A DNA stretch of 64,000 nt, taken from positions 20,624 to 84,623 of the IMG/VR virus record IMGVR_UViG_3300031707_000005; one strand, written 5' to 3'. Positions 1,832 through 60,902 of the stretch are shown piece after piece. Source of the stretch: a virus. Position numbers and translations under genes: made by a program. Position 1 is the stretch's first letter. Each line of letters begins with the position of its first letter. The notes below the pieces were generated by a model. That model searched no databases. It was not told the DNA's origin and saw only the letters and a program-made list of their open reading frames with translations.

Positions 1832-2407
1832 ATGGGTCGTAAATTAACTATACTGGACCGTACCCGCTATATGAGCGATAAAGTAGCAGATCTACTCCGA
1901 CATGTCAGCACCTCAAAGGTGGAAATAATGTTGTCGGAGCAGAATGTGGTTTCCGGAATCCCGGACTCCGGTTTTTGGCCAAGGGTTACTATCAGTATCC
2001 CGGGCAAATTCAGGACATTTCCACTTACCTACTATAAACAGCAAACTAAACAAACAAGTAGTATACTCAGTGAACTCGAAGTAGAAATTCTCATATTGGT
2101 TAGTGGGGGCTCAAAAACCGATGTAAACCATTATGGACGTAAAAGGGAACTAAGAGGTGCTGCTGCCAGAATACAGGGTGTCATTAATAGAGCCATTCTA
2201 AAGGCATCAACGAAAGACCCGATGGCCACTAGACATGCAGCTGCATCCCGTCGATATAGAAAGAATAAATTCTTGCAAAAGTTCAAAGACTTCTGCAAGA
2301 CGAACGGTTACGGAGTCGAATATGAAGACATCAGACCATCGGAACTTGGAAAAGTCTGGGATGACGTCCGACGAACGAAGCTAGCCGAGTCCGTGATGGA
2401 CAGCTAA
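1832..2407 (+). CDS. Hypothetical protein ending in the (V/I)MxS C-terminal motif
   Basis: 191-aa ORF filling the gap between head genes on the opposite strand; ends AESVMDS*. Confidence 0.7.
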   Translation: MGRKLTILDRTRYMSDKVADLLRHVSTSKVEIMLSEQNVVSGIPDSGFWPRVTISIPGKFRTFPLTYYKQQTKQTSSILSELEVEILILVSGGSKTDVNHYGRKRELRGAAARIQGVINRAILKASTKDPMATRHAAASRRYRKNKFLQKFKDFCKTNGYGVEYEDIRPSELGKVWDDVRRTKLAESVMDS

Positions 2408-3157
2408 TTATTTTGCGGACGCCATTCTCATTCGCTTGATAACCGGCAAAAGAGCTGTTCTGAGTCTCGGACTCGAATGAGCAAGTCGGATCAATACCGG
2501 GAGAGCAGAAGAAATGGATGAAGTTTTGTGATGTTTGAGAATATCATAAATTTCTCTCATCATAACTTGGACTTCAGTCTTCGGATCCAGGACATCATAT
2601 ACTTCTTGCATCAGGGACTGGGTTTCATCTGAAGGCGTTTTTTTAGTTTCAACCTTAGGTTCAGTCTGCTTCGAGAGACCCTCGGCACCCTTCAAAACAG
2701 ACTTGATCCCGCCTTCAGAAGGTTCTTCCTCGAGATCGTCGAGCTCAACAAGAAATTGTTCCAATTCTTTAAGGTGAGGAACGTCTTTATCTTCGCCTTC
2801 ACCAGCGACTCGAGCCGAAGCGCTCTTCGCGCTCTTCGCGCTCTTCATCTTCTTAACGATCTCGCGAAGTTTTTCTTTTTCTTCAGCGGCTTCATCGTCA
2901 AAGAACTTCACAAATTCAGCCGACGCAGGATCGAGATCACCTGATTTGATTTTCTCAAGAGCCTTCTTCAAGGTATCCTGAAGCTTCTTCAGAACCGGGG
3001 CAGCCGACTCGAAATCTGAGTCAAAAGACTTCGGTTTCGGATCTGGATTTTCAGCCGCATATTGAAGAGTAGCCTTCTCGAGCTCGTATCCGAGAATTGG
3101 GTTGCTACTGGAAACGCGGCTAGCGATCTCCATTAATTTTGCGATATGCTGGTTCAT
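2408..3157 (-). CDS. Putative internal head/scaffold-like protein
   Basis: Acidic and helical, with SARVA and LIRLAHSSPRLRTALLP motifs shared with 4889-6391. Start placed at MNQHI, next to the upstream stop. Confidence 0.6.
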   Translation of the reverse strand: MNQHIAKLMEIASRVSSSNPILGYELEKATLQYAAENPDPKPKSFDSDFESAAPVLKKLQDTLKKALEKIKSGDLDPASAEFVKFFDDEAAEEKEKLREIVKKMKSAKSAKSASARVAGEGEDKDVPHLKELEQFLVELDDLEEEPSEGGIKSVLKGAEGLSKQTEPKVETKKTPSDETQSLMQEVYDVLDPKTEVQVMMREIYDILKHHKTSSISSALPVLIRLAHSSPRLRTALLPVIKRMRMASAK

Positions 3158-3159
3158 AG

Positions 3160-3603
3160 TCAAATACCCAATTCTGTATTCGCTCGAGTTAGATCGGAGA
3201 TCCACTCTGCAAGAATTTCTGGAATTTCCGTGTCCTTGGTTTTCTCAAAACGTGCAAGTGCACGATTTCCAGCGTATGAATGAGGGATACCGAGATCCGG
3301 ATAATCGATCGTTTCATCAATCGGTTTTCCGTTAAGGGTCCAAACCTCTTTCTCGGTACCACCACCAGAATCAATCAATCCATGGCCTACAAGCTCTCCA
3401 AGAGAGGTGTCGGCAACGACATGAAAACTACCATAACTACGTTTATCACCAGTTTCGTAAACAAATTCTTTAACAGTCACAGGGGCTATGGCAGCTATGA
3501 TTTTCTTCAAATCACGCGCCACAAGTGCGCGATCCGGATTCCGAGATTTATTGATTGCTGATGCAATCCGACGAAGAGTCTTGGAAAGTTCCGACGGTTC
3601 CAT
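3160..3603 (-). CDS. Putative head-associated protein
   Basis: N-terminus MEPSELSKTLRRIASAINKS resembles an internal segment of 51703-52542; lies in the head operon. Confidence 0.6.
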   Translation of the reverse strand: MEPSELSKTLRRIASAINKSRNPDRALVARDLKKIIAAIAPVTVKEFVYETGDKRSYGSFHVVADTSLGELVGHGLIDSGGGTEKEVWTLNGKPIDETIDYPDLGIPHSYAGNRALARFEKTKDTEIPEILAEWISDLTRANTELGI

Positions 3604-4292
3604 TAGTGAAGATCCTTAGGATGAATCACAAAGCTACAATCTTGGCATTGCAAGACTTTTTTACCCGCACGATAGACACGTGGCTTAAGTAAGCCTTTGC
3701 ACCGAGGACAGGACACCTTCCCAGAAGATTTCTCTTGTTGGGTTACTTTGTACCGACGCTTGTTATTCTTCCAGTAAATTGCAACTCGACGGCCGAGTTC
3801 ATATAGATTCGAGACCGTCAGTCGAACGGCTTCTTGCCCATACTCAGGACCGAAGGTAGAAGACATACGGAAATATGTCTCGACCTCGTCCATACCACAG
3901 TGCCACGCTTCACAGGCTGCTCTCCATAAAGGAAGAGTCCTATCTTCATAAGCGTCGACAGCGCGACTGGCGAGTGACTTACGGAATTTCTCATCAGCCT
4001 TCTGAACCGGCTTCGAATTAATATTCCGAGCACCTTCCCAGGTTGAATAACTCTGGTCAGCTTGTGACGGAGCGAAGTACTCAGAAGTATCTCTGATTAA
4101 CTCCGAAGCTGTCTCGAGCTCTGCACCCCAAGGCCATTGGACCTGAACTTTCCCGGTGTCCACGTTCGAATAGAGAACTCGACCAATATAGGGACTCATA
4201 ACGAAGTCGCGCAACCCAGCCTTGCGCACGACATCGCCGGTATTAAAATCCCTAGCAATCAGTTGGTCATCTACGAACGCAGTCCGGTGCAT
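3603..4292 (-). CDS. Hypothetical head-region protein with C-terminal Zn ribbon
   Basis: CPRC...CQDC at the C-terminus; overlapping stop/start with the next gene. Confidence 0.7.
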   Translation of the reverse strand: MHRTAFVDDQLIARDFNTGDVVRKAGLRDFVMSPYIGRVLYSNVDTGKVQVQWPWGAELETASELIRDTSEYFAPSQADQSYSTWEGARNINSKPVQKADEKFRKSLASRAVDAYEDRTLPLWRAACEAWHCGMDEVETYFRMSSTFGPEYGQEAVRLTVSNLYELGRRVAIYWKNNKRRYKVTQQEKSSGKVSCPRCKGLLKPRVYRAGKKVLQCQDCSFVIHPKDLH

Positions 4293-4328
4293 CTGGGTCT
4301 CCCTGGTGCCTCAGCCAGCAAACCAAGC

Positions 4329-4847
4329 TCAAGGAGCCCAGGTCTTACCAGCGGACGCGGTACGGGGAGCTTCAGAACCCTGCTTGGTGCTCTTACCGGC
4401 AGGACCCTTCGTCCAAGAAGGTTGCTTCTTGGTCGGTTCGGCCCATTCCGATAGATCACGGACCTGATGTTCCTTACGATCGGTCACCGTTGTGGTGCGG
4501 TCCTGATCGTAGTTGTCGATCCCATCAGCATTGAAAGACTTCTCAGTCTTATGCATGTATGGCTCGTCCGAATCCGACTGGATCACCTTATTCGGGTTGT
4601 CGAACGTATCCATATACTTCTCATCGGAGTCCTTCTGAAGAACCTTCGCGACCTTCGTCGCGTGGCGCTTCAGGGCATCATTACCGAACGCTGCGACCTG
4701 AAAACGGTCAGCAAACGTATCGATATCACGTGTAAGAGCCGCAGCAACCCGCGGGTCCATCTTACCCGCTTTAGCGAGAAGGTCAATCTTATTAGCGGTC
4801 TCGTCGAGATTCGCGAGGACCTTGTTAGCAACTTGCTTCTGAATCAT
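4329..4847 (-). CDS. Putative head-associated protein
   Basis: GGAG SD before MIQKQVAN; several K/R-x-A motifs. Confidence 0.65.
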   Translation of the reverse strand: MIQKQVANKVLANLDETANKIDLLAKAGKMDPRVAAALTRDIDTFADRFQVAAFGNDALKRHATKVAKVLQKDSDEKYMDTFDNPNKVIQSDSDEPYMHKTEKSFNADGIDNYDQDRTTTVTDRKEHQVRDLSEWAEPTKKQPSWTKGPAGKSTKQGSEAPRTASAGKTWAP

Positions 4848-4888
4848 GAGTATCTCCGGGCTTACCCTATAAGGGTTGCATGAAAGGT

Positions 4889-6391
4889 TCACCACTCCGC
4901 ATCGTCAATCGAAGCCTTTTTCTTGCCAAAAGGAGGAGCCTTTTTACCACCAAACGGAGGAGCTTTCTTACCTCCAAAAGGTGGTTTCTTCTTTCCGTCC
5001 TTACCGGCAGGAGCTTTCTTTTTAAGGGCTTTCTTACCCTTCTTCTTGTCCTTGTCCTTGTCCTTCTTTTTCTTGGCTGCAGCCAAGATCGGAAGAAGGG
5101 TGCTCCGAACAGCCGGAACTTCATGAGCAAGGCGGACAAGAGTGCTAAGACTGACGCGAACTGAGCTCGTCTTAACGTGTTTAGCAGCTTCTCCAACATC
5201 TGAGAAGAGTGCGTCGAGACCCTTCACGAAGGACTCGATGTCGTCATTTGCAAGAGCTTTATCAAGCTCAGAAGCTTGACCACTAAGAGTCTTCATGAAA
5301 GCTTTGCCTTCATCGTCAGACATTGAGTCGAGTGCGTCCAGAACGCTCTCAAGACTCGCGCCACCAATATCAGCAACACGCGCGGAAGCGGTCTTCTTCT
5401 CAAGAACTTCTGATATATCTTTCAAACCATCAACAAAACCTTCAACATCTTTGGAATTGACGAGCTTCTTCGTCTTTTCCTTAAGATCTTTCAGATCAAG
5501 ATGTCCTTCAACAAATGAGTTCATTTCTTTGTCAGATAAAGAACCCTGTTCTTGTTGTTGACCTTGTTGCTCCTGAGAGTTTTTACCCTCTTCCTGCTGT
5601 TCTTCCTGCTGCTGTGAGGTTTTACCCTCTTCCTGCTGCTGCTGCTGCTCTTCAGCAACACGCATTGATCGAACAGTTTTAACGATATCAAGCGCGGCGC
5701 GCGGATTTGAATGCCTTAGTTCACTGGCAATACGCAGGAAATCTTGAACATTGGTCATGACTGAGGCGCTCCTATTAGATCCGTCTCTAGGTAAAATAGT
5801 CTCGGCAAACTGATCATGCTTCCAACCTGCGACACGATTTAGAAGCATGTCGTATGTCTCAGCATCAATCTTAGATTGATATAGATTAGAGTCGGCAAGA
5901 TGGATGGCTAAGTCTAGCGCGGCTCGGATGGGAGCATCAGGAGCACCGCCTTCCCAACCATTTTTCAACCAATCTTCACCCATCAACTCTTTAGTGGCTG
6001 CCACGATAGAGTCGAAGTGGTCTTTCCCAAAATAACGCTTGTCGTACGACTTATACGGAGTATTTGTCGGACCGGACGGATGTCCTTGTCCAAGTACTCC
6101 GTGATATGAAGCAATCTTTTGAGACATAGCCTTAATAGGTCCGGTTTCATAAGAAGTTGCTATACTGGAAGCAATCTCATTAATAATAATAGGTTTCATA
6201 GACATAGTCGCGAGAGACATATCAGAATCATCTGTCTTAGTATCCGTGTCGCCAGTATCGATCCTACGACGCCTATTATCGTGTTTCGGTCCACGCTTAT
6301 CGTCTGTCTTACGAGATGGGGGAGTCTTTTTATCAATCAGGCGTTCTACCTGACGTTCCTCTTTCTCTGATGGAGTCAAATCAGTCGGCAT
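4889..6391 (-). CDS. Putative scaffold/internal head protein with Q/E-rich linker and Lys/Pro-rich tail
   Basis: Directly downstream of portal; poly-Q/E tract, KKTASARVA, LVRLAHEVPAVRSTLLP, and three KKxPPFG repeats. Confidence 0.6.
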   Translation of the reverse strand: MPTDLTPSEKEERQVERLIDKKTPPSRKTDDKRGPKHDNRRRRIDTGDTDTKTDDSDMSLATMSMKPIIINEIASSIATSYETGPIKAMSQKIASYHGVLGQGHPSGPTNTPYKSYDKRYFGKDHFDSIVAATKELMGEDWLKNGWEGGAPDAPIRAALDLAIHLADSNLYQSKIDAETYDMLLNRVAGWKHDQFAETILPRDGSNRSASVMTNVQDFLRIASELRHSNPRAALDIVKTVRSMRVAEEQQQQQEEGKTSQQQEEQQEEGKNSQEQQGQQQEQGSLSDKEMNSFVEGHLDLKDLKEKTKKLVNSKDVEGFVDGLKDISEVLEKKTASARVADIGGASLESVLDALDSMSDDEGKAFMKTLSGQASELDKALANDDIESFVKGLDALFSDVGEAAKHVKTSSVRVSLSTLVRLAHEVPAVRSTLLPILAAAKKKKDKDKDKKKGKKALKKKAPAGKDGKKKPPFGGKKAPPFGGKKAPPFGKKKASIDDAEW

Positions 6392-6439
6392 AAATATTCG
6401 ACATAACAAGACAATGAAAGTCTATTGCATGATATTATA

Positions 6440-8260
6440 TCATGCCGAGTCTTCAGACTGTCCGAATCTATCACCCTTCTTCTTAATCATTTTGAGACCG
6501 GCATTTGTGACAATTTTCTCTAGTGCATCGGTTTCGTCAATAGCTTTATCTCCAGCCTTCTGGAGAACATTTTTTAAGAATTCATTGAATGTTGAGTCAT
6601 TCGGGGTAAACATATCACGCTTTAGCTCTTCAAGAGTTTCGTCTGAATCTATATTCAGGAGTTCAAGAATAAACGAAATCGGAAGTGATCCCTTTTGATA
6701 GAGATTAAACATGAAGTCTTGGAGCTCCGTATTATCTCGGAGGGCAAGACGAGTAAACTGAAGTTTCGGATAAAGGTATACCTTATTTCCGAATTCATCG
6801 ATTTCAAAGAATCCTTTTTTCTCTGCAACGGGTTCAAAAAGCTGCTCCTCAACAAATTGGGCAATACTCTCCCGGTACAGAAGATACATCGTATTCATGA
6901 CATCAAGATGAATTCGTTCACCAGAGTAAGTTGACTCTCCGGTCAACATTGACTCAGTGATACGAAGACCGATGAACAAGAGCTTATTTGTAATCTCATA
7001 TTCAGTTCCGAGATCAAGAAGACGATCTCGTGATCCAATTTCATCCCAATGAACTTCAAAGTTCGTAACAACAGTGAAATCAGGATCAATAATAGCTTGA
7101 TCTATTTGATCACGCAAAGCATCAACGTCTGGTTCAGACATCTTATCTGCCCATATGATACGTTTCGGAGTCATCGCACGAGACGCAATTGAAGTTTGGG
7201 CTTGACGAAGTTTATCTTGATATAAAAGAGTACGGAGACAACGTTCTAAAAGTGATATTCCACGCTCATCATATGATGACTTCTTGTGGGAAAGATGGTG
7301 GCAAAATGATGAACAAAGAAAAGAATCATATGGACTTGAATTAAGAGGTATAGGTTGTCCAGACATCAAGTTTTCACGGATTTGCTCCGGAATATCATCA
7401 GCAATACGTGCCGACTCTTCGTCGTGTTGTTCCGTAGCCTTCATAACGAGAAGTCTATCCTTCTCGGAAGGAATAAGTTCTATTTTCGCTTTATTTGTAT
7501 ACTGAAAAACCTCAAGCTTAACTTGTTCTGGAGGAAGAATTTGGAGTCTTTCCCACCCAGTATAATTCTCAGCCACGTACTCGCGGATGGTTTTATTCAT
7601 CTCGCTTTCCGGTTTCATTGCGCGTTTACGCTCTGTTTTCGTTCTCGCACGACCAGCGTAATCAACTTCAACGACGTTTTCTTCAGCGGGTTCACCTTCT
7701 TTAGGAGGCTCAAGAAACATTTCGTCAGTTATACTAGAAGTAAGGTCATGGTCTTCACAGAAGATAAAAACGTTCCCGTGAAGCCAGTATTCATGGGTGG
7801 CATCATACAAAGTCTGAAATAAACGAACCCTCTTACACATTCTTTCATAAAAATGAAGAATTTGTTTGTTCCGGGTCTTGTCTTTTCCCTTCGGGAGAGA
7901 AAGACGAATTTTGCTCATCGGAACGTCTGTATGGAAATCAATAGCTGACCCAACTATAGGGTGTGTCGTGTACCAAAATCTAAAAAGCTCACGTTTTTCA
8001 CGTTCAGACTGAGGTAATTCAAGAAAGTCTGTGGAAAGCTGAGGACTATAAAATGCAGAGTCGGCATTCGCAATGGCACTGGAACCAGAGTTCCCGAAAC
8101 CACCGGCAAATGAAGCAACACGAATAGACTGAGAAGCTTCCTTCCTAGCCATCTTCTCGAGCTTTGACAATCTAGACTTAGTAGCAACCTGTTCTTGTGC
8201 CTCAACGACAGGAAGACCTGGTCGCGGGGGTTGAACTCCTGTCCGTGGTTTCTTAGGCAT
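6440..8260 (-). CDS. Portal protein
   Basis: 606 aa, near terminase. Motifs FRFWYTTHPIVGSAIDFHT, EYWLHGNVF and RGISLLERCLR are typical of large-myovirus portals. Confidence 0.8.
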   Translation of the reverse strand: MPKKPRTGVQPPRPGLPVVEAQEQVATKSRLSKLEKMARKEASQSIRVASFAGGFGNSGSSAIANADSAFYSPQLSTDFLELPQSEREKRELFRFWYTTHPIVGSAIDFHTDVPMSKIRLSLPKGKDKTRNKQILHFYERMCKRVRLFQTLYDATHEYWLHGNVFIFCEDHDLTSSITDEMFLEPPKEGEPAEENVVEVDYAGRARTKTERKRAMKPESEMNKTIREYVAENYTGWERLQILPPEQVKLEVFQYTNKAKIELIPSEKDRLLVMKATEQHDEESARIADDIPEQIRENLMSGQPIPLNSSPYDSFLCSSFCHHLSHKKSSYDERGISLLERCLRTLLYQDKLRQAQTSIASRAMTPKRIIWADKMSEPDVDALRDQIDQAIIDPDFTVVTNFEVHWDEIGSRDRLLDLGTEYEITNKLLFIGLRITESMLTGESTYSGERIHLDVMNTMYLLYRESIAQFVEEQLFEPVAEKKGFFEIDEFGNKVYLYPKLQFTRLALRDNTELQDFMFNLYQKGSLPISFILELLNIDSDETLEELKRDMFTPNDSTFNEFLKNVLQKAGDKAIDETDALEKIVTNAGLKMIKKKGDRFGQSEDSA

Positions 8261-8963: not shown

Positions 8964-10910
8964 CTATGGAAGTCTCCTAGCTTGCCGTGAAGCTGTTCGA
9001 AGAGATCCTCCATGTAAACGAGTACGCTGTCGATGATATTGGTGATATCCGACACTAGATTGTCTTGAGGAATGTTGCGTAGCAATTTGACGTCCATTTG
9101 AGTCAAGAACTCCAGGATTTTCACGAACATGTTCCATAACAAGCATGATGGAACGGGCAAGTGAGTCAGACATATCGTCATGTTTCCCGGCTATTTTCGG
9201 GGACTCAACGGAAATCATGTTTTTTCCACTAGACGACGACTGAAGTTCAAGAAGTTCAGATATTAAAGGAGAATGTCGTACACTTCCACTTTCAGCCAAA
9301 GCCTGCTCTGGAATAGGCCAGTCATAAAGGGCGAGCTGACGGTTGAACATCGCCATCCTGAAAGTTTGCCACATTTGAGATGTTTCTGACGGAAAGAAAT
9401 TTCGCATTTCAAATTGAGTCAAATTTTTCTTATGCAGAACTTGCTCAAAAACTGGACCTGCCCACTGATCGAAAACACCGCGATACATATAAAAACGTTT
9501 CGATAGGGCAAAAAACCAGTTAGCTATCTCATCAAGATCAAGACGAGATTGATCCTGGAGTGTCATAGCATACGGAACCATCGGAGCTTCGAGATGCGGA
9601 TTAGCGTCTTTCCAATTCCTTTTCGGATACCAAACTTCATGATAAGCAAGTTCGATTTTCCCACCAGATATATGGGTGAGAGATATAGCCGTTCCATCGT
9701 TTGAAAGACCGAAATCAACACCGGCCCAGTGGGCTTCACGTGGGAATCCACGAGTAGCAGGACGCAAAGACGGGACTATACAATCCTGCAAATCTTTCCA
9801 ATTCTCGATGAAACCACGAACGCGATCAGAAAACTCAGCCCCATACTCAGTCATGAATGACTTCGGGTCTTTAGCGTATTCGACCTTATAATCTTCTTGA
9901 GAAAGAGTCGGATTCACTTCCCAAGTCGGAGCTTGGATAATTAAAGTGTTTGAAGCTTCAACGCCACCAGACATGGCTTGTTGGTAAAGACGGTAAAAGA
10001 ATCCCTCTTTAGCGTCCGGTGACGATATGAGAATCATGCGACCGTCTGTTGGACCGATCGGTTTATGTTTATCTTTTGAATCTTTCGGAGTAAACTGCTT
10101 TAATGATGGAGCAAGACCACGATATACCTGTTCAGCGCTACTCTTACCATCATCGATAAAAAATGCGATCTCGTCCAAAATAGCACAAATAACGCCACGA
10201 CCACGAAGACCTTTTGCGATCGAACTTTTAAAAGTAGCAGTTATCGTTGCTTTCCCATCCGGTCCGAAACGTTTTCTATCACTATCTGTTCTAAACTTCA
10301 CATATGTTTGGGTGTCATGGGCAACGTTATTTTTAAAGTAATCAACTGCTTGAATATGAGATTGAATGTCACCGTAAACGATGGATGCTTGCTCTTTATC
10401 ATTAGCAATATCCAACACACGCATTTCAGAACCAGGAGGAAGGCCGTAATAAGCCTGCGGGGAACCGCGTTTCAGAAGTTTGTATAGCTCATACGCAGCA
10501 AAAATAGCCGCCATGGAGCTTTTACCAGAACGACGACCGAGAATTAAAATAAGTTCTCGACGAACTTTATCATCCTGTTCTTTAATATTGCATCGTCCCT
10601 GGTCATATAAATACTTAAGATATTCTACTTCAGTAAATTCATATTTTACACGATTGTTTAAATAATCCTTAACTAGAATGGTTTTATTTACATCATCGAG
10701 CGGTAGGTTATAATACAGTTTAACAATAAATTTTTGAGCTGGGAAGAGACCATACGGAAAAAGTTTAAATTTTTCAATAAATTCTAAAATTGAAAGAAAA
10801 TCTTCATCACCGTTGCCTTCATCGCCATATTTATCACGACGTTTCTTTCCGATAAAGTCGGAAACCTCTCCAGTGAGTTGGCTTTGAAACTTTGGTTCTT
10901 TAGTAGGCAT
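8964..10910 (-). CDS. terL: Terminase large subunit
   Basis: Walker A GRRSGKS, Walker B AILDE, motif III ISSP, RNase H-like nuclease GVDFG...HDDMSDS. Confidence 0.93.
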   Translation of the reverse strand: MPTKEPKFQSQLTGEVSDFIGKKRRDKYGDEGNGDEDFLSILEFIEKFKLFPYGLFPAQKFIVKLYYNLPLDDVNKTILVKDYLNNRVKYEFTEVEYLKYLYDQGRCNIKEQDDKVRRELILILGRRSGKSSMAAIFAAYELYKLLKRGSPQAYYGLPPGSEMRVLDIANDKEQASIVYGDIQSHIQAVDYFKNNVAHDTQTYVKFRTDSDRKRFGPDGKATITATFKSSIAKGLRGRGVICAILDEIAFFIDDGKSSAEQVYRGLAPSLKQFTPKDSKDKHKPIGPTDGRMILISSPDAKEGFFYRLYQQAMSGGVEASNTLIIQAPTWEVNPTLSQEDYKVEYAKDPKSFMTEYGAEFSDRVRGFIENWKDLQDCIVPSLRPATRGFPREAHWAGVDFGLSNDGTAISLTHISGGKIELAYHEVWYPKRNWKDANPHLEAPMVPYAMTLQDQSRLDLDEIANWFFALSKRFYMYRGVFDQWAGPVFEQVLHKKNLTQFEMRNFFPSETSQMWQTFRMAMFNRQLALYDWPIPEQALAESGSVRHSPLISELLELQSSSSGKNMISVESPKIAGKHDDMSDSLARSIMLVMEHVRENPGVLDSNGRQIATQHSSRQSSVGYHQYHRQRTRLHGGSLRTASRQARRLP

Positions 10911-13573: not shown

Positions 13574-14677
13574 CTATATGGTCTCGAGCCTCTCCAAGTC
13601 CGCGATAATATTCGAGATATTTGCAGCACAGCGTCTGAACTGTGACGATACCTCGGGTTGAAGGATTGAATCAATCTCCAACTGAATAAGCTTCTCACGG
13701 ATTGCGGATAAAGAAAACTTCCCATCCGACGCTGTCTTAGCAATCGGAAACTCGTCAAGTACATCCTTCACGAAAACTGAATGACGAAGCTTAAGGCACC
13801 TGATGATATCAGATGCCAAAAACTGCGGCTGATTCTGACCGGACAAAAACGACATAATATGTCGACGCGTCAGGTCTTTCTTCCCAAACTTCTTTACGAA
13901 GTCTTGAGTCAACCCGGTAACAAGCTCAATATTGGTTGCCTGACGATGATTCATGGTTCCTGTCTCCGACGCAATAATGCGACCTCCATTTTGAAGATCG
14001 CTCCTGTCGTAATCAACATTCTCAGAAAAATCCTCTGACGGAAAGCCCTGAGGACCCGATATATCTTCAGTCTCGTGTCCGGACCAAAAATTCCCGAGGG
14101 AATTCAGGAAGTTATCCATCGTAACTTCGTTCTTCTGAACTCCGGGAAGTGAATCTTCTTCAGTGGAATATGAACCGGAGTCCTCATCTGCCCATTCGTC
14201 GCCAGAAAAACCCATCTTCATATGATCGTAGTAGTCAGCTCGAGCTGATGGATTGTTCCCGTCATTCGGAAGCTCAGCTGTCTCAGCTACGGAAGGGGTT
14301 ACAGGTTCCTTAACATCCATCTTTGGATGTTGATGGGTCGTATTAGTGTCTTGGTCACCTGGAAGCATTCCAGTAGCATCACGAAGACGATCAGAGAGCT
14401 CCCTAGTATACGCTTCGATAGTAATAACTCGACCGTCTTGCGTAGTTATTCGACGATCTGCCGCGAACGTCTGCGGATAACTTAATAGTCGATCAGGACC
14501 GAATGGGTCCGTACCATGCGTTCCAGGCAAAGCGTCGCCATGCGGCGAGGTTTCCGATCTCGGATCCTCGTCGTCTTCCCCACGTGAGGTAACACCGTTA
14601 TCCGAGTCATAAGTCCCTATGCCAAACTCATTAACTGCTTTACCTAAGGCATTCTCTGTAGGGAGAGACGCAGGCAT
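13574..14677 (-). CDS. Acidic putative internal head protein
   Basis: Low-complexity acidic N-terminal part; RQAT and KTAS motifs. Confidence 0.6.
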   Translation of the reverse strand: MPASLPTENALGKAVNEFGIGTYDSDNGVTSRGEDDEDPRSETSPHGDALPGTHGTDPFGPDRLLSYPQTFAADRRITTQDGRVITIEAYTRELSDRLRDATGMLPGDQDTNTTHQHPKMDVKEPVTPSVAETAELPNDGNNPSARADYYDHMKMGFSGDEWADEDSGSYSTEEDSLPGVQKNEVTMDNFLNSLGNFWSGHETEDISGPQGFPSEDFSENVDYDRSDLQNGGRIIASETGTMNHRQATNIELVTGLTQDFVKKFGKKDLTRRHIMSFLSGQNQPQFLASDIIRCLKLRHSVFVKDVLDEFPIAKTASDGKFSLSAIREKLIQLEIDSILQPEVSSQFRRCAANISNIIADLERLETI

Positions 14678-16045
14678 TCAAAATTCTACCTCCCAGAGGT
14701 CTTTCGGATCAACTTTTCTTTTCGGAGCCTCGATTCCTGCAGGAAGTATCGGAGCCGCTTGTTGACGCATCCAATCGAGGTCATCATCTGTGAGACCACG
14801 TTCGTAATAATTCAGATTCCGGTCATTCGAAGCACCAGGGAGCCATGAATAACTATCTTGAACTGAGATAGCAACACGACTTGAGATTTTCAAAACTGTC
14901 TCATCACCATCGGTCGAGTTATCATCTCCAGTGACGCCATCCATCGTCCAATCCTCGTAAAGAGGTTTAGACATGTTTGTGCCACTCGGAAGGCCATCTC
15001 CGGCCAAGTCATCCGATCCAAATGAATCTCCATATCCACCACTCTCAGTCCCGGACGCACCAGGACCGATGTGTTTAACTCGAGGGCCTGGAAGAGTCTC
15101 AACCGGTATCGAGGAACTACCGCCAGCTATCATGAACCGCTCAATAAATTGTTCGAACGAAATAGGTTCACGTTTCCCAGCAACTCTAGCTTCATGATAA
15201 GACCGATATGCCTTAAAAACACGAGCCATCGCTGATGAATATCCGCCTTCATTTGATGACGTGGTATTCATTACCATTTCAGAAACAGTTTTACCCTGCC
15301 CCTGCTCGCCAGAGTCAGAAGGGAGTTCGGATCCAGGTTCTTCTGGTTCCGGATATTTAAGTTTCTTTAGGTCCTTCGCATCAGCAAAAGCATTCTCAGA
15401 GGCAATTTGAGAGAAGAAGTCATCATCTTCTTCTTCATCACTGTCATCATCCGATCCATCATCAAGGACAAAGCCCTCATCAAAGTCCTCAGGAACAGGA
15501 TTTGAAATGGGTTTTTCGTCCTCTTCATCGTCGTCGTTGCCAGGACCCGGGTCAAACCCTTCATCTTCTTCAAATTCGTCTTCTATGAATCCTTCAGGGT
15601 TCCCCTTCACTTGCTCCGCATCTTGAACCATTCCAGAAATTTTATCATCAGAAACCCGCTTCCAGTGTTCTGCATTAATTTCATCGTGAACGGTATCAGT
15701 AAAACTCGACATGGTCTCAACAGCCGTAGCAAGAGATTGCCTCATCTCTTTAACAGCTTGAATATACCCGCGACCACCAAGAAGACCGTCCGGGGAAAAA
15801 CCGGAAGACGGGATCTTACTAAACAACCGATATGCGGCGATGGCATAACTATGGGACCGTTGTGCAGCCCAAAGAATTTTTGCTAAGTTCTTAAGATTTT
15901 CAGGAGTCCATTCAAACCCTTCAACCCGAATATCACGACGTACAGGACCGGAGTCCTTAACGAACTCGATTTTCCCGGCTGTACGAACAGTCCCATGACT
16001 GGATGCAAGTCTTCGGGCGATTGTGTCAAAATCCTTCGAATTCAT
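14678..16045 (-). CDS. Acidic putative internal head protein
   Basis: Poly-D/E tract; RRLAS, RTAG, RVAG and RVAI motifs. Confidence 0.6.
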   Translation of the reverse strand: MNSKDFDTIARRLASSHGTVRTAGKIEFVKDSGPVRRDIRVEGFEWTPENLKNLAKILWAAQRSHSYAIAAYRLFSKIPSSGFSPDGLLGGRGYIQAVKEMRQSLATAVETMSSFTDTVHDEINAEHWKRVSDDKISGMVQDAEQVKGNPEGFIEDEFEEDEGFDPGPGNDDDEEDEKPISNPVPEDFDEGFVLDDGSDDDSDEEEDDDFFSQIASENAFADAKDLKKLKYPEPEEPGSELPSDSGEQGQGKTVSEMVMNTTSSNEGGYSSAMARVFKAYRSYHEARVAGKREPISFEQFIERFMIAGGSSSIPVETLPGPRVKHIGPGASGTESGGYGDSFGSDDLAGDGLPSGTNMSKPLYEDWTMDGVTGDDNSTDGDETVLKISSRVAISVQDSYSWLPGASNDRNLNYYERGLTDDDLDWMRQQAAPILPAGIEAPKRKVDPKDLWEVEF

Positions 16046-18325: not shown

Positions 18326-18443
18326 GTGAAAAAATAAGAAGTTTTCATAGTTTAGTCATTATAGTAACCGATTATGTACGAGTTAGGAATACATGACTTT
18401 TATACGTGCCATGCTGATCAGTGACGGGCTAGTATTTTCAGTG

Positions 18444-19514
18444 TTATATATCAGATAACCATGAATCCATTGGAATTGATTCAGGAATTGATGGAGCAAT
18501 TGATGGAGCAATTTGTGTTCCGGTCCTAAATGGTGCTATGTCTATGGATAACATTCCGAAATCTTGACGGATGATATCAAGAGCTATTTGAAAATCTTGA
18601 CGTCCAGCTTCTCTAAGAAATTTAGGTAAATTAATTTCATTATCAAATCCGACTAAGTCATAATTAAGAGTTACACGATCACGTAGAGCAAAAGACTTTT
18701 CTCGTTCTGATGCAGACATTCCAGGAAGACCACTGGAGTATAAGTCATCAATGCTTTTGTGATGACATAAAGCAGCAGCAACTTTCTTCCTGAGTCTATC
18801 GACACCGTGTATTCCGTCAGATGAATCACCGCAGAGAGCTTTAAACATACGAACATGAGCTGGAGGAATTGCCGGATGTTTACCATTATTCATTCGAGCC
18901 CAGTGCTGAGTGGACTTATCAGCATCGAAAAATCTGTCCCCGTCAAGACCAGGGACGTAGCAAGCTACACGAGGATCCACGAGAAGCTGAAAAAAGTCCT
19001 TATCGGCGGATACAATCACCCGAATGGAATCGGGATGAGACTTACAAAAACTAGCAATAAGATCATCTGCTTCTTCTTCGGGATGATGATATATATCACA
19101 CCCGAGAAGAGAAAAAATATGAGCGACAATGTCAACTTCACATGTGGCCGCATAACCATCCTTCAAAATCTTATCAAATCTAATTCCCGTGGAAGACGGA
19201 TCAACAAGCTTCAAACCACGATTCGACGCCTCATCTCTATTTGATTTATATGTTGGATCAAGTTCTTTTCGTCGTCTTGAATACCCATCAAAAAACACTG
19301 ATATTTTGGTTATATCTGGAATAGAGTATAGCCAATTTGAAAGCATGGAAAGAGAACCGAAAATAACTCCGGTCGGATAACCGCCCGGACCAGAAAGAAG
19401 GGGTTCTCCACGACCAAAACGAGCCTCTACATATGCATAATAAGCTCTATGAACAAGATTGTTCCCGTCAACAAGCACATGACGTTCAGTCTCTTTACCA
19501 CCAACACGTCTCAT
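18444..19514 (-). CDS. 5'-3' exonuclease / flap endonuclease (PolA N-terminal-like)
   Basis: LVDGNNLVHRAYY, YKSNR, EEADDLIAS, SADKDFFQL, ALCGDSSDGIHGV. Confidence 0.9.
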   Translation of the reverse strand: MRRVGGKETERHVLVDGNNLVHRAYYAYVEARFGRGEPLLSGPGGYPTGVIFGSLSMLSNWLYSIPDITKISVFFDGYSRRRKELDPTYKSNRDEASNRGLKLVDPSSTGIRFDKILKDGYAATCEVDIVAHIFSLLGCDIYHHPEEEADDLIASFCKSHPDSIRVIVSADKDFFQLLVDPRVACYVPGLDGDRFFDADKSTQHWARMNNGKHPAIPPAHVRMFKALCGDSSDGIHGVDRLRKKVAAALCHHKSIDDLYSSGLPGMSASEREKSFALRDRVTLNYDLVGFDNEINLPKFLREAGRQDFQIALDIIRQDFGMLSIDIAPFRTGTQIAPSIAPSIPESIPMDSWLSDI

Positions 19515-21650: not shown

Positions 21651-22193
21651 CTAACGATCTTGCAAAGAGTTTCCGAGTTCGACAAGCTCGTTATTCCATC
21701 TACCGTAACGTTCTGCAATTTCCGAAAACTCCTGAATCTGAGGAGGACGAATGCTATATCTCATCTCACCGGATTTTTCATCTTCAGTTCCGACGCACCG
21801 TGTAAGAAGATGATCAACGAGTGCATGGCGTTGATTAGGTTGCATATTATTCCAAACTTCAAGAGCTACAGTCATGATGAAATGCGCTTCTTGGTTATCT
21901 TCATGATTACTTGAAAAGTACGAACGTGAGATATGGGCTTCAGTCGGTGTAGCTTTCTTCAAATGTCCAGGGACAAGTTTTCCAGCAGACTTCGCAGCCT
22001 TATTACGACACAAATAAATGATGTTGGCACTAGCGAGCTCAGGGTGATGTTTCGGGATAAGTCTTTTCGCTATTTCCGCAACAGTGTCCGAGTCACCAAT
22101 GATAAGTGGCTCAGGGGCAACTTTTTCTTTCTTACCACGAACAGCGTCATTTTCTTGTTTCATTGTCAGTTCATCTTGAATACGTGCAGTCAT
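21651..22193 (-). CDS. Putative phage metallopeptidase-fold protein with degenerate active site
   Basis: Family-like layout (HHPEL..ANIIYL...F.M......W..M...QR.ALVDH), but DHLLTRC and PQIQEF replace the usual HELxH and HDxEEF. Confidence 0.55.
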   Translation of the reverse strand: MTARIQDELTMKQENDAVRGKKEKVAPEPLIIGDSDTVAEIAKRLIPKHHPELASANIIYLCRNKAAKSAGKLVPGHLKKATPTEAHISRSYFSSNHEDNQEAHFIMTVALEVWNNMQPNQRHALVDHLLTRCVGTEDEKSGEMRYSIRPPQIQEFSEIAERYGRWNNELVELGNSLQDR

Positions 22194-22978: not shown

Positions 22979-22979
22979 A

Positions 22980-23597
22980 TCATTTACGGGGACAAAACGC
23001 GATACTATGCTTAATGTTGTGAAGCACAATACTTGACTTACCACCTAGAATTTGAGTATACATCCCAACGAAATCAGGTCTCGATAAAAAAATCGGGAAT
23101 TTCACCCCACACTGTTGAATGCGACATGTTTTTTTATATACAGAAACCGTATCACGTGTTCCATCTGAATTAGAAGGAGTTGATCCATGAGTCAAATTAG
23201 ATTTCCCGGCCCATTTTTCAAGTTCTTTCTGACTCCAAGATAATGGAACTAGCACACAGTGAGGCTGTGCCTCGGTCCCACTCTGCTTTTGTAACCAGTT
23301 AAATGCAGACTCTGATGTCTTATGGATATTATCCCATTTTTCACTAAGAGAAAGCTCATAAGCCGCATTCATAAGATCGGGAATAATCTCATCTAAGCGA
23401 TCAGAGTCATACTTAAAAACACCAGATCTTATCATCCCGTCTACAAGTTTTCTTGCAACACTAAACTTCGGCGTTGATAAACTTACAACAGCCGGTAAAA
23501 ATGATGGCTTTGCTGGAACTTCAATCCAAAAGATCGTCCCGTCAACCCCACGTTTGTACTTATGAAGATCGTGATCAAGTATTCGAAGAAGGATCAT
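22980..23597 (-). CDS. Hypothetical protein
   Basis: 205-aa ORF in a tightly packed operon. Confidence 0.7.
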   Translation of the reverse strand: MILLRILDHDLHKYKRGVDGTIFWIEVPAKPSFLPAVVSLSTPKFSVARKLVDGMIRSGVFKYDSDRLDEIIPDLMNAAYELSLSEKWDNIHKTSESAFNWLQKQSGTEAQPHCVLVPLSWSQKELEKWAGKSNLTHGSTPSNSDGTRDTVSVYKKTCRIQQCGVKFPIFLSRPDFVGMYTQILGGKSSIVLHNIKHSIAFCPRK

Positions 23598-46202: not shown

Positions 46203-47399
46203 ATGCAAGAGGGAAAACTGAACGTGTTGTTGGACGCATTCTGGGGGTCATCCGGTAAAGGAAAGACGTCCGCATGGCTTGCCGATAAATTCGGGGTAAC
46301 ACGAGTCTCAAGTTCAAATTTCCCGAATGCAGGTCATACAGCCGCATTTGAAGATGGCACGAAGTTCATAGCAAAAGCTATTCCGACGGCTGCAATCTTA
46401 AAGAAAGTTAAAGGAGTCGGGATGCAGTGCTGGTTATCTCCTGGTTCCGGATATGACTGGAATCAACTAATTAAAGAATGGGTTGAATCTGAAAAGCCGG
46501 AGATCAATATCCACTCACGTGCGTCAATCGTAACAGCAGAACACAAACAACGTGAAGCCAGTGGTTCAGAATCTACGAAGCATATTGCAAGTACGATGCA
46601 GGGTTCAGCCACAGCGATTGTTGACAAAGTCTTACGAAAAGCAGACTGTCAACTTGCAGAAACGATCGACCCGCGCATTATGATTGAGTCTCTATATGAG
46701 TCAAATCCAGTAACGCGTGATATTTTAGATCGTAGCGGAGCTTTACAAGAAATTGATCGAATTCGTGTTGTTGATGCGTTAGTTTTTCGTAAACTAACTC
46801 ATAGAGCACTTCGAAGCGGCCATACTTGGTTACATGAAGGCTCTCAAGGATACGCGCTTTCCATTGATCACGGATCTCATTATCCATTTTGTACGAGTCG
46901 AAACTGTTCAGTTCAAGCTGCCATGGATCATATGGCGGTTCCCCCGTCGATGGTAGGTGATGTTTATTTAAATCTACGAACTTTTCCAATTCGAGTAGGA
47001 AATGTCATTGAAGACGGAGTCCAAAAAGGTTTTTCCGGTGACTTTTATCCTGACTGTCGTGAAATGACATGGGAAGAAGTCGCGGCTGAGTCTGGTATGC
47101 CTCCTGAAGAAGCTAGAATGCTTGCTGAACGTGAAAGAACCACAGTTACGAAGAGAATTCGACGTGTCTGTAATTTTTCGTTTGAAGGACTTAAGGACGC
47201 TGTAGCAGTAAATGGCGCGACGAAACTAGTTATGAATTTTATTCAGTATATTAATTGGGAAGATGCCGGATGTGTTGAATTCGACAAACTTTCAAAAAAG
47301 AGTCGCGAGTTTATTTCGAAAGTTGAAGAAACTGTAAACGTTCCGGTCGTTTTAGTTGGAACCGGAGCACTTCATAATGAAATGATTAGTCGCTTGTGA
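46203..47399 (+). CDS. purZ: PurZ-like N6-succino-2-amino-dAMP synthetase (adenylosuccinate synthetase family)
   Basis: WGSSGKG (Ser where PurA has catalytic Asp in GDEGKG), NFPNAGHT, STMQGSA, EGSQG, YPFCTSR, FPIRVG, TTVTKRIRR, and NFIQY in place of PurA TKLD. Confidence 0.75.
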   Translation: MQEGKLNVLLDAFWGSSGKGKTSAWLADKFGVTRVSSSNFPNAGHTAAFEDGTKFIAKAIPTAAILKKVKGVGMQCWLSPGSGYDWNQLIKEWVESEKPEINIHSRASIVTAEHKQREASGSESTKHIASTMQGSATAIVDKVLRKADCQLAETIDPRIMIESLYESNPVTRDILDRSGALQEIDRIRVVDALVFRKLTHRALRSGHTWLHEGSQGYALSIDHGSHYPFCTSRNCSVQAAMDHMAVPPSMVGDVYLNLRTFPIRVGNVIEDGVQKGFSGDFYPDCREMTWEEVAAESGMPPEEARMLAERERTTVTKRIRRVCNFSFEGLKDAVAVNGATKLVMNFIQYINWEDAGCVEFDKLSKKSREFISKVEETVNVPVVLVGTGALHNEMISRL

Positions 47400-47620
47400 T
47401 TTGTTACGGGACCCAATCGGAGACCGTCTGGCTGCCTCAAGGACTTCCTGCAAAAATATTTGGACCATGTAGATATGAAGCGATTAAGCTTATCGAAGTA
47501 AAAAATCGCTTCATCAATAAATTAGTCATACGTCCTGCATGCAAGTCATGTATAGAAAGTATGGATTGTGTTGTCCTTGATGATGATTTATTCATCATAT
47601 GGGAAATAATGAATTCATGA
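47396..47620 (+). CDS. Small Cys-rich protein ending in the (V/I)MxS motif
   Basis: C...C...CKSC; ends IIWEIMNS*. Confidence 0.65.
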   Translation: MICYGTQSETVWLPQGLPAKIFGPCRYEAIKLIEVKNRFINKLVIRPACKSCIESMDCVVLDDDLFIIWEIMNS

Positions 47621-51259: not shown

Positions 51260-51664
51260 TTAGCTACTATGGATTATTTCTACGGATTTAGCGAAATGAT
51301 CCGCCATCACAATCGATGCTTCGGTATTCGGAAGAATTGATCGAACTCCGTTAAAAATTTCAATCAACCAGTTCGAATTAATGTCGAATGGAATATCGTA
51401 AAGAATTTTTCCGTCATTATAATCAATCATGGTAATACGATTCTCGAGAGCAAGTTCGTAGCAAATTCTCGAGAGTCGGTGGATCTTTTTAAAATCTCCG
51501 GGAGTAGCATTTTCCTGTCGGGCGTTCCTCCGAATTTCCTCGGACAGAGTATCAATGAGTTGTCTGGACCTCCACTCTTCCAGTTCAATCTCCAAAAAAC
51601 CATCTTGGAGTCTCCATTTTACCTCACCGTGCCCAGTATTCCAAATAGAGTATTTACCCATCAT
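51260..51664 (-). CDS. Hypothetical protein with a variant C-terminal motif
   Basis: Ends SVEIIHSS*. Confidence 0.65.
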   Translation of the reverse strand: MMGKYSIWNTGHGEVKWRLQDGFLEIELEEWRSRQLIDTLSEEIRRNARQENATPGDFKKIHRLSRICYELALENRITMIDYNDGKILYDIPFDINSNWLIEIFNGVRSILPNTEASIVMADHFAKSVEIIHSS

Positions 51665-56275: not shown

Positions 56276-56707
56276 ATGTCAAAATCGGAATTAAAAAGTG
56301 TTCATATCCATGATCGTATAAATTCTAATGGTTTTAACCTCGTAGTTCGTTTTACAAATGTTTCTTTCGTAGTTCCCTTAAATGATGGACTAAATGCTGA
56401 TGAAATTCTTCATTCCACGTACGGAACGATTTTATATACTGTGAGATCTGAAGTTACCTCTATACTGATATTAACCGAACACAAACCATTTTTGAGAGAG
56501 ATAATCAAAGATCTCATTTCGATACATACTAATGATAAAGTTACATTAGCTTTCAATGTGAAAAAATCGAAGTTATTTTTACAACGTTGGGAAGTGGGGT
56601 TGCTTCGAAAGTTTCTGTTAAGTTATGACCTTCCGAAAAAACTTCCAATTGAATCAGCAGTACAAGTAGTCAAAGAACTCTATGTAGAACAAGTCATGGA
56701 ATCATAG
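56276..56707 (+). CDS. Hypothetical protein ending in the (V/I)MxS motif
   Basis: Ends KELYVEQVMES*. Confidence 0.7.
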   Translation: MSKSELKSVHIHDRINSNGFNLVVRFTNVSFVVPLNDGLNADEILHSTYGTILYTVRSEVTSILILTEHKPFLREIIKDLISIHTNDKVTLAFNVKKSKLFLQRWEVGLLRKFLLSYDLPKKLPIESAVQVVKELYVEQVMES

Positions 56708-56710: not shown

Positions 56711-57169
56711 ATGACGTACACGAGACCAATTCTAGAGGCCATAGAACTCGATGTAAATGAACTCGGAATGAAATATATTAAAATAATAAGACGCCCATCT
56801 GACGATAAGCCAATTCTCGATATTATGTTTCTAAATGGGTTAAGACTTACCGTAGATATGACTTATAATATGAGTGTTCATGATATAGGGAGACAGCTTC
56901 ATATCAATCTTAAAGAGGTTAGACCCCACAGCTTTATAGAGTATGAATCTGCCATCAATGCAATAATCTACTCAATTGAGAGGGTATTTAGCTATCCGAA
57001 TGGTAAAATCATCCAGATTGATTTTAATAAGAAAGAAAAAATAGAACTAGAACTTCATAAACGATGGTCAGAATCGCTTTTCTTCGTTTGGATGAAGAAA
57101 TCTGAATTTATGAAGAGATATCCGTATGAACTTATTTTACGAACTATTACCGAATTATATATAGAATAA
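56711..57169 (+). CDS. Hypothetical protein, likely paralog of the upstream gene
   Basis: Similar RW and C-terminal ELY(V/I)E pattern; ends TELYIE*. Confidence 0.65.
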   Translation: MTYTRPILEAIELDVNELGMKYIKIIRRPSDDKPILDIMFLNGLRLTVDMTYNMSVHDIGRQLHINLKEVRPHSFIEYESAINAIIYSIERVFSYPNGKIIQIDFNKKEKIELELHKRWSESLFFVWMKKSEFMKRYPYELILRTITELYIE

Positions 57170-58365: not shown

Positions 58366-58371
58366 GACCTC

Positions 58372-58704: not shown

Positions 58705-58707
58705 GCC

Positions 58708-59172: not shown

Positions 59173-59188
59173 TTCTAAAGAAATACAT

Positions 59189-59434
59189 TCAACTAGTCAT
59201 AATTTCCCGACAACAAAATTCTTCAACAGATAAATTGATGAAATTCACAATAGATTCTAAATCATCATGGAAGTGTTCTTCGCATCGACGATATAACTGG
59301 TTATTATTTGCACGAGACATATAGAAATGTATGGCCGGTCGACCGCACGGTGTCGGTGTCAGTGCTAGTGGACCGGCCACATTTCCCGAAATTTCCCAGT
59401 CTAGCTTATCACATTTAATGCCATGTTCCATCAA
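59189..59434 (-). CDS. Small C-CG.PA-CxxH protein ending in the (V/I)MxS motif
   Basis: CGRPAIHFY...CEEH...SVEEFCCREIMTS*. Confidence 0.7.
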   Translation of the reverse strand: MMEHGIKCDKLDWEISGNVAGPLALTPTPCGRPAIHFYMSRANNNQLYRRCEEHFHDDLESIVNFINLSVEEFCCREIMTS

Positions 59435-60024: not shown

Positions 60025-60138
60025 ATTATCTCTATACTGTCAGATTCGATTCAGTCAGATCGGGTTAGGTTGGGTTGTTGGTTGGGTTGTTGATTTGGTT
60101 CGTGTCGCGGTCATAACTGACCGAACGAATGTTGAAAA

Positions 60139-60435
60139 CTAAGACAGCCAAGAAGTCCTTGAGTCTCTACTGATGTGGATGTCGCCTGTTGCATCATAAC
60201 AAGTACTGAGATATAAAGTCGGTTCAGCTACTCTAGCATGCCATATAGCTGTTATTGCAACATCATCCAAGAATTTAGGGTCACATGAATCACGCGGTTC
60301 TTCAAAAAACTCAATCGGAAGATTAACTGTGCTACCATCTGAACCCTGTTGTACGTCGCAGTGAAAAACATTATCACCATCGAGACGGATGGTTATTTTA
60401 ACTTCACCAGAGTATCGGAATATCTTCTTCACCAT
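60139..60435 (-). CDS. Hypothetical protein
   Basis: 98-aa ORF in cluster. Confidence 0.6.
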   Translation of the reverse strand: MVKKIFRYSGEVKITIRLDGDNVFHCDVQQGSDGSTVNLPIEFFEEPRDSCDPKFLDDVAITAIWHARVAEPTLYLSTCYDATGDIHISRDSRTSWLS

Positions 60436-60442
60436 CAGATGG

Positions 60443-60660
60443 CTAGCTCATCATAATTATCCAGCAATCAAATTCTTCAACAGTTAAACGAGTAACAAGC
60501 GGAGATGTTTCAAGAACAGAATTTTTCCAGTGGTCTGGACATCGGGGATGGGATAATTCACCTTCCGGGTGATTAGAAATGAAAAAATCCGTGGCTGGTT
60601 TACCGCAATTTGACGAAGAGATATTACGACGTTTACCGGGTGGTTGCACTCATGGAACAT
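60443..60660 (-). pseudogene. CG.PA-CxxH/(V/I)MxS paralog with apparently frameshifted 5' end
   Basis: The main frame has CGKPATDFF...CPDH...TVEEFDCWIIMMS* but lacks the first Cys. MFHECNHP lies in another frame, and the TATAAT-N5-ATG start encodes only 6 aa. Confidence 0.45.
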
Positions 60661-60701
60661 TATACACTACCAAATAAAAACACTAATTTACGATCTATAG
60701 T

Positions 60702-60902
60702 TTAGCTCAACATGACCAAGTATGCAATATACTCATCATTGGAAATTTGTTCATAACTCATAAACTTTGAAGAATGTTTATCGCAACAAGACTCGAGCTT
60801 ACGTTTACAAATAATGAAAAAATGGGTGGATGGCTTACCGCATAGGAGCCATGTGCTCTGATGCCCATCCATCATGAAATAACTACAAGACTCGGTTTTC
60901 AT
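60702..60902 (-). CDS. Small C-CG.P-CxxH protein ending in the (V/I)MxS motif
   Basis: CSYF...CGKPSTHFF...CDKH...ISNDEYIAYLVMLS*. Confidence 0.7.
   Translation of the reverse strand: MKTESCSYFMMDGHQSTWLLCGKPSTHFFIICKRKLESCCDKHSSKFMSYEQISNDEYIAYLVMLS

Follow-up and report, generated by a model that had tools for sequence, protein, structure and literature searches.

A short C-terminal tail, [VI]M.S followed directly by the stop codon, was found on six proteins encoded in a 64,000-nucleotide stretch of viral DNA, here called the window, which comprises bases 20624-84623 of the 84.6-kb IMG/VR contig IMGVR_UViG_3300031707_000005 (G000, rated ~20% complete). In G003, a complete phage genome of 426,960 bp with terminal repeats, the same tail ends 94 of the 687 called genes compared to 0.13 expected, a roughly 700-fold enrichment; the original prediction, made from the window, would have been refuted if the tail had not exceeded background. 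We show that this tail is strictly terminal, selected at the protein level and carried by many unrelated protein bodies, and suggest that it probably serves as an address or docking label that is read in trans by one shared partner.

Enrichment of the Tail in a Complete Relative

G003 was reached by scanning IMG/VR for the signature of a mini zinc-finger family described below, a signature that is independent of the tail. The genome is collinear with the window, with 55 of 100 proteins in common and identities of 60% for the large terminase (TerL) and 71% for the portal protein, which identifies it, as judged from these comparisons, as a true relative of the window's phage. Genes were called as greedy longest open reading frames (ORFs), and the choice of the start does not affect the C-termini. 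Besides the called genes, 10 further ORFs of G003 end in [VI]M.S, resulting in 104 strict carriers, and the broader pattern [VIL]M.. ends 168 of the 687 genes (24%), reaching 34% of the genes at 58-252 kb. Internal copies of the tail remained at background (25 compared to 25.3 expected from composition), demonstrating that enrichment of the motif is confined to the extreme C-terminus. Near-variants were likewise observed more often than expected, namely LM.S (9 versus 0.05), [VI]M.T (10 versus 0.05), [VI]H.S (4 versus 0.14), and [VI]M. with any other final residue (43 versus 1.1). Counting back from the C-terminus, position -7, which had not been selected for, is V/I in 86 of the 104 strict carriers, -8 is hydrophobic and -2 is mostly Glu. 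The acidic-then-hydrophobic prefix (EEF, DEY) that had originally been noted in front of the tail is mainly a feature of the zinc-finger family; elsewhere it proved to be a mere tendency, about one in three G003 carriers having acidic residues (E/D) at -11 and -10.

The G003 carriers use six Ser codons from two boxes (TCN and AGY), seven V/I codons and all three stops. This diversity argues that selection acts on the peptide, and DNA-level causes such as a terminator, a promoter, a ribosome-binding site or a recombination cassette were ruled out on the same grounds. The carriers of the window also differ in their Ser codons (AGC, TCA, AGT) and stop codons (TAA, TGA, TAG); thus, their common feature is the peptide and not the DNA. 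A peptide could also act in cis, as a nascent-chain signal whose last residues work inside the ribosome at termination in a TnaC-like manner, tying expression to the termination toolkit of the lineage. A fixed register to the stop would be expected of such a signal centred on the peptidyl transferase, G003 possesses a transfer-messenger RNA (tmRNA) and a tRNA with a UCA anticodon, and TGA is the stop of 45% of the carriers compared to 36% (P = 0.03). Nevertheless, a surface helix is suggested by the heptad-like spacing of the hydrophobic residues, the use of six Ser codons implies different P-site tRNAs, and carriers and non-carriers are alike in the base that follows the stop and in how far downstream the next in-frame stop lies. 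Moreover, the tail varies between phages in dialects, whereas the ribosome tunnel is conserved, and we consider a nascent-chain signal very unlikely.

The proteins carrying the tail differ widely, with lengths from 50 to 365 amino acids (aa). After removal of the last 12 residues, the bodies of the 168 broad carriers fell into 149 phmmer clusters, and 101 BLAST clusters were obtained for the 104 strict carriers. None of the 48 G003 carriers of at least 100 aa matched Pfam. Carriers are spread over ~190 kb of G003; most of them lie in the accessory arm and hardly any in the structural region, in which three small tagged genes are located at 313 kb.

Carriers in the Window

All seven C-termini of the original prediction, six canonical ones and one His-variant, agreed with the ORF translations. 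The respective genes, together with an untagged paralog, are as follows.

1832-2407, plus strand: p191, 191 aa, head module, function not known, unrelated to the zinc-finger family; ends LAESVMDS
47396-47620, plus strand: p74, 74 aa, apparently degenerate mini zinc-finger member; ends IWEIMNS
51260-51664, minus strand: p134, 134-aa orphan, probable His-variant of the tag; ends SVEIIHSS
56276-56707, plus strand: p143, 143-aa orphan; ends ELYVEQVMES
56711-57169, plus strand: p152, tandem paralog of p143; stops at ELYIE, without the tag
59189-59434, minus strand: p81, 81 aa, mini zinc-finger member; ends CREIMTS
60443-60649, minus strand: p68, 68 aa, mini zinc-finger member; ends CWIIMMS
60702-60902, minus strand: p66, 66 aa, mini zinc-finger member; ends AYLVMLS

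A position matrix trained on G003 tails only was applied to 102 window genes and ranked the six canonical carriers first (p143 24.1 bits, p74 21.5, p66 14.9, p191 13.7, p81 13.6, p68 9.2). Five of these six exceeded the maximum of 10.5 bits obtained over 24,215 internal windows. The IHSS end of p134 scored weakly at -1.4 (p = 0.006), the 8th rank among the 102 genes, although it agrees with the [VI]H.S variant enriched in G003.

On the whole 84.6-kb contig, 1454 stop-to-stop frames span at least 30 codons; [VI]M.S-stop closes seven of them, and six of the seven correspond to the claimed genes. The remaining match is a frame of 50 codons at 18383, in which a 42-aa ORF (window 18383-18511, minus strand) lies in a 260-bp gap, ends in RIKVMYS and overlaps the next gene by 68 nucleotides. 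Since V/I is missing at -7 and the neighbouring gene is overlapped, this VMYS end is probably a chance match. A further end, EIMRT at G000 22190-23044, was taken as coincidence; its G003 ortholog ends in FLNNWR.

The window further encodes the large terminase, the portal, a ribonucleotide reductase, exonuclease V, a clamp loader, a PurZ-like synthetase, ThyX, and NUDIX and KH proteins. The block common to the window and G003 stops near window position 56 kb; the last 8 kb of the window therefore represent the start of the accessory arm, and with them the contig ends. The phage, of roughly 420 kb, is thus represented in the window by no more than the margin of this arm.

Several other features of G003 were recorded. 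A tmRNA with the tag ANDNASLAIAA is located at 75832-76185, a tRNA whose UCA anticodon would read UGA at 80541-80615, and the tRNA count is 37. A Ro60-like protein with a TROVE domain and a Ro60 vWA domain (E ~1e-62) is encoded at 97892-99673 on the minus strand, and the accessory arm also contains a full RuvB, a VanW-like protein and a saccharopine-dehydrogenase-like protein.

A Mini Zinc-Finger Family with a Conserved Tail

The proteins p81, p68 and p66 are paralogs, and their family follows the pattern C..CG[KR]PA..F[YF]..RC..H..[ST]xx[DE]E[FY]x[VI]xx[VI]MxS-COOH, the last 15 columns being among the best conserved. A profile search covering 1.84 billion representatives yielded 25 cluster representatives at E < 1e-3, all of them proteins of 52-87 aa. 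In the family alignment, -4 is V/I in 27 out of 27 sequences, -3 is Met in 23 and His in 3, and -1 is Ser in 22. A hidden Markov model (HMM) built exclusively from members outside the contig recovered p81 (1.5e-18), p68 (9.5e-17), p66 (2.1e-16) and p74 (2e-3) and gave no other match on the contig, so that p143, p191 and p134 were not matched; the tail HMM also matched p74 (E = 8e-4). The putative metal ligands C, C, C and H, predicted from sequence, occupy conserved columns in p81, p68 and p66, whereas in p74 the second Cys is replaced by Gln and the His by Cys, and by these matches p74 is a degenerate member of the family. As p81, p68, p66 and p74 belong to one family, their tail is due to common descent. 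The description of the carriers as otherwise unrelated therefore does not hold for these four but stands for p191 and p143.

The family has no match in Pfam or the PDB and matches only PHROGs of unknown function. In G003, 18 genes match it. An ortholog of p68 (P0007, 58% identical) ends in VWEIHSH. The p81 gene is part of a minus-strand operon and is flanked by a KH-domain gene and a helix-turn-helix gene. Its AlphaFold2 (AF2) model (predicted local distance difference test, pLDDT, of 84) shows a beta-rich zinc ribbon and a helix at residues 70-80, with no fold match in the PDB. The p74 gene overlaps the genes on either side of it, one PurZ-like and the other a further small gene. In G003, where the counterparts of these two directly adjoin each other, no gene is present at this position, and a mini zinc-finger gene thus seems to have been inserted recently in the window's phage.

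Several observations weigh against a portable tail that is read in trans. Full-length paralogy, named from the beginning as the alternative by which the motif would be simple shared ancestry, accounts for four of the six canonical carriers in the window, the others sharing only the tail. When the zinc-finger family is collapsed to one, 3 carriers among 99 genes are left, a number reached by 3.6% of the nulls for this schema and by 27% for any comparable schema; because this is not significant, the window alone does not prove a portable tag. In G003, at least three Cys are present in 45% of the carriers of 40-80 aa compared to 17% of the non-carriers, and with many carriers both tiny and Cys-rich, undetected common ancestry could inflate the count of unrelated families. 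Finally, the tail helix is confidently folded in the p81 model, in which it may pack on its own domain instead of hanging free.

Paralogy in the window, the 18 family members of G003, the Cys enrichment of small carriers and the helix within the confident fold of p81 would all be in agreement with a hidden superfamily, derived from a few small ancestors in which the helix is the best-conserved element of the fold and has no common reader. However, the range of carrier lengths argues against this, as does the Cys content, which above 120 aa is at background in carriers. Comparing the zinc-finger profile with the p191 family by hhalign, only the terminal 8 residues aligned, end to end, and with p143 only the terminal 11; furthermore, p152 lacks the tail in spite of being the tandem paralog of p143, and all carriers have the tail in the same absolute register to the stop. 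We therefore regard a hidden superfamily as quite improbable. The tail-only hhalign alignments and the large number of body clusters in G003 uphold the portable C-terminal peptide on unrelated bodies that had originally been proposed.

Carriers outside the Zinc-Finger Family

The p191 family is kept in the head module of relatives, and its orthologs, 63% to 28% identical, all stop at the same position. With identity falling over this range, p191 and its orthologs end in VMDS, VMES, VMDS, IMES, IMES, VMET, VHDL and VHDR; the tail is thus kept down to 31% identity (VMET), and VHDL and VHDR belong to the two most distant orthologs (33% and 28%). In a GC-rich relative (L015), the homolog of p191 ends in VMET, and two small Cys proteins end in VQES. 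The AF2 model of p191 (pLDDT 74 overall) ends in a long helix whose last 8 residues are below 50, and the p191 and p81 models, as predictions, do not settle whether the tail helix is exposed. In G003, the p191 slot between a 919-aa head-module protein and the next head gene is filled by a 169-aa gene ending in MIMES (298904-299413, minus strand). The tagged gene is on the opposite strand in both G000 and G003, and no homology between p191 and the 169-aa protein was detected by hhalign.

That both non-homologous occupants of this head-module slot are tagged would be expected if the helix docked proteins inside the HK97-type prohead or another phage-built compartment, the carriers being packaged or sequestered as cargo, and the small tagged genes in the structural region of G003 would fit as well. 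Encapsulins and microcompartments are known to be loaded via terminal amphipathic helices. Nevertheless, ~168 cargo species would be far above known virion proteomes, the carriers lie mostly in the accessory arm with nearly none in the structural region, and known phage capsid-targeting sequences are N-terminal and cleaved. Cargo loading thus appears improbable.

The only database match of p143 is p143 itself, and a peptide scan of IMG/VR found no close relatives of p191 or p143. The tail of p143 is the best tag match in the window, and its similarity to p152 (BLASTP E = 1e-4) extends across the C-terminal halves. p152 stops five residues before the end of p143, where the latter reads on with QVMES, and the p152 stop abuts a convergent gene. 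The two proteins thereby offer experiments a tagged and an untagged version that arose naturally. p134 showed no similarity to the zinc-finger family; an exchange of Met for His at -3 is also seen in orthologs of p68 and p191, and by this comparison the IHSS end of p134 is a probable His-variant of the tag. Neither the carriers nor the zinc-finger family could be assigned a function by searches of Pfam, PHROGs and PDB sequences or with Foldseek and the ESM Atlas.

Distribution and Dialects of the Tail

To compare genomes, the Met tail was counted as a DNA pattern and set against a reversed-pattern control, resulting in 167 versus 31 matches for G003 and 16 versus 1 for G000. For G004, 7 versus 12 matches were obtained. 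In the complete distant relatives LR745208.1 (485 kb, 24 versus 12) and Tunturi_5 (309 kb, 4 versus 8) the pattern is near control level, and in a 50-kb sample of each the proteins had no tail in common. Chance or an artefact of ORF calling, which the window alone with its paralogs collapsed (P ~0.04-0.27) might still allow, is refuted by the low control counts of G003 and G000, by the near-control level in distant relatives and by the enrichment in G003.

In G004, of which 10.7 kb were examined, zinc-finger and other proteins end in VIDS, LITS, LLNS, LLNS, VLES and IINS. Judged by these ends, the tail exists in lineage-specific dialects.

Drift was also observed within one family of 130-140 aa present in three relatives. 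Its members end in AEIMLG (G000 9706-10104, minus strand, upstream of the window), ADIMYS (G002 27357-27743, equivalent to L011:12357-12743, plus strand) and AEIMVAW (G003 105816-106235, minus strand), with a constant I-M core and drifting final residues and length.

Candidate Readers

Genes for ClpP, Lon, PDZ_2 and S41 peptidases are not encoded in the complete genome of G003. The sole concrete phage-encoded candidate for the tail reader is an operon of G003 comprising a MoxR-like AAA+ ATPase (187265-188407) with intact Walker A and a protein with a DUF2201_N and a vWA-like domain (183462-184934), in which HESYH (an HExxH zincin motif) and DTSGS (a DxSxS MIDAS motif) are intact. vWA domains have been proposed to capture the substrate peptide in vWA-MoxR systems (PMC7159879). 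DUF2201_N is present in the tag-bearing G003 and G004 and absent from the complete LR745208.1 and Tunturi_5, both of which are without the Met tail; neither the MoxR nor the DUF2201 gene is present in the window or the 84.6-kb contig.

A survey of DUF2201 neighbourhoods found 72 phage loci, many of them from 250-480-kb phages, and 70 of these were scored. A pooled ..[VIL][VIL]F[ST] tail was enriched at these loci (24 observed versus 0.48 expected). Three results nevertheless speak against the MoxR/vWA operon: a recurrent tail within 10 kb was found at only two of the 70 loci (L084 and L056), the pooled LLFS signal comes mostly from one homologous operon partner, and G005 has DUF2201 without the tag. 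In addition, an IKDIIE tag was not found in five complete DUF2201-bearing phages of 430-480 kb. We consider it unlikely, though worth naming, that this operon reads the tail.

At least 10 phage loci (L052-L082) encode a homologous 116-144-aa protein ~1.3-1.8 kb upstream of the DUF2201 gene, which ends in K[LI][KR]TYL[LI]FS-COOH; both its association with the operon and its free end appear to be conserved. Longer paralogs of 195-217 aa with the LLFS-type tail are located farther upstream. L084 contains five tandem paralogs of 86-109 aa (6339-7191 and 14269-14786) ending in E[DE]KIT[KE]LIF[TS], and these are homologous to a 99-aa G003 protein encoded two genes downstream of the DUF2201 gene and ending in VHALMTD. 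Thin as the comparison is, this small family beside DUF2201 may follow the local dialect, with ALMTD in G003 and LIFT or LIFS in L084.

Alternatively, the tail might be a C-degron through which a host AAA+ or tail-specific protease destroys early accessory proteins at a set time, the dialects following the host. Its strictly terminal position in fixed register to the carboxylate and its confinement to small accessory proteins would be consistent with a degron. The degradation would fall to a host enzyme, since genes for ClpP, Lon and S41 peptidases are missing from G003. However, characterised bacterial C-degrons (ssrA/ClpX) end in non-polar residues, whereas the last residue of the tail is Ser, mostly following Glu, with acidic residues before. 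The tmRNA tag of G003 is classical (LAIAA) and unlike VMES, which argues against an ssrA-like degron, and p191, a conserved protein of the head module, keeps the tail in all close relatives. A C-degron is thus a rather improbable explanation.

Comparison with Known Systems

Full-text searches of the literature found no description of such a tag, in line with the initial statement that no matching system is known, but several systems resemble it in part. Encapsulin and microcompartment peptides are short terminal peptides or helices common to unrelated cargo, as the tail is to its carriers, and are read by one shell protein; encapsulin shells share the HK97 phage-capsid fold. The peptides serve only a few cargo proteins, whose genes are usually next to that of the shell, whereas the phage tail is found on about a quarter of the proteome, mostly far from the capsid genes. 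The peptide sequences are unrelated; the tail is C-terminal, and only one carrier slot, that of p191, lies in the head module. The capsid targeting sequence of T4 (IPI-III, Alt) is likewise a short phage peptide on unrelated proteins, which it sorts to one destination, but it is N-terminal, removed by the prohead protease and restricted to few proteins, whereas the tail is strictly C-terminal.

The ssrA/ClpX degron corresponds to the proposed label in being a transferable C-terminal peptide read with its free carboxylate by one machine acting on many substrates; the degrons end non-polar (LAA-COOH), the phage tail in Glu-Ser and acidic. PDZ ligands, which have a hydrophobic last residue, do not agree with the tail, which ends in Ser, Thr or another small residue, and G003 has no PDZ_2 or S41 protein. 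The poxvirus ankyrin/PRANC and cellular F-box adaptors, large and diversifying families, follow the logic proposed for the tail in combining variable target-binding bodies with a constant C-terminal element that connects to one machine. Their element, read by Skp1, folds into a domain of ~40-50 residues and is carried on a single repeat scaffold, in contrast to a helix of 8-14 residues on many scaffolds.

In vWA-MoxR systems with a zincin metallopeptidase, small fast-diverging proteins keep a conserved C-terminal peptide (Kaur, Burroughs, Iyer, Aravind 2020, PMC7159879). Similarly, the phage carriers keep only the C-terminal peptide, and G003 encodes MoxR together with a zincin/vWA protein. 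The peptides of these bacterial conflict systems, which have one precursor each, are of the FxSxx, RxD, acidic and FtsH-associated types (PMC7159879). In contrast, the phage motif is [VI]xx[VI]MxS, occurs on hundreds of carriers that are spread rather than placed beside the peptidase, and has a weak operon link.

Proposed Function and Implications

A docking label read by one shared partner, the explanation we favour, could work as follows. Many of the small, fast-evolving accessory proteins of the lineage, a large share of them, carry a common amphipathic C-terminal helix with the consensus (acidic)-h-[VI]-x-x-[VI]-M-x-[S/T/small]-COOH, in which the distance of Met from the free end is constant at three residues. 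The hydrophobic face of the helix (-8, -7, -4, -3) and the terminal carboxylate would be gripped in trans by one partner, which thereby could handle hundreds of unlike proteins as a single class. Target specificity would come from the variable bodies, such as those of the CCCH mini zinc fingers, and the connection from the constant tail. Going further, it is possible, if doubtful, that this amounts to addressing on the scale of the proteome. A quarter of the genes would then be adaptor modules that plug into one phage-encoded machine, possibly the MoxR/vWA/zinc-peptidase with the metal site of its vWA domain gripping the Glu-Ser-carboxylate, while the bodies pick host targets and the dialect co-evolves with the reader.

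Most genes of huge phages are without known function, and one peptide on approximately a quarter of them would provide a common working route. The reader, once found, would give a working context to hundreds of proteins together, and the 14-residue tag would offer a simple handle for pull-downs, localisation and stability assays. The mini zinc-finger family, with at least 25 clusters in public data, represents an uncharacterised phage family in its own right. Finally, the tail would supply a sequence rule by which this class of accessory genes may be spotted in metagenomes.

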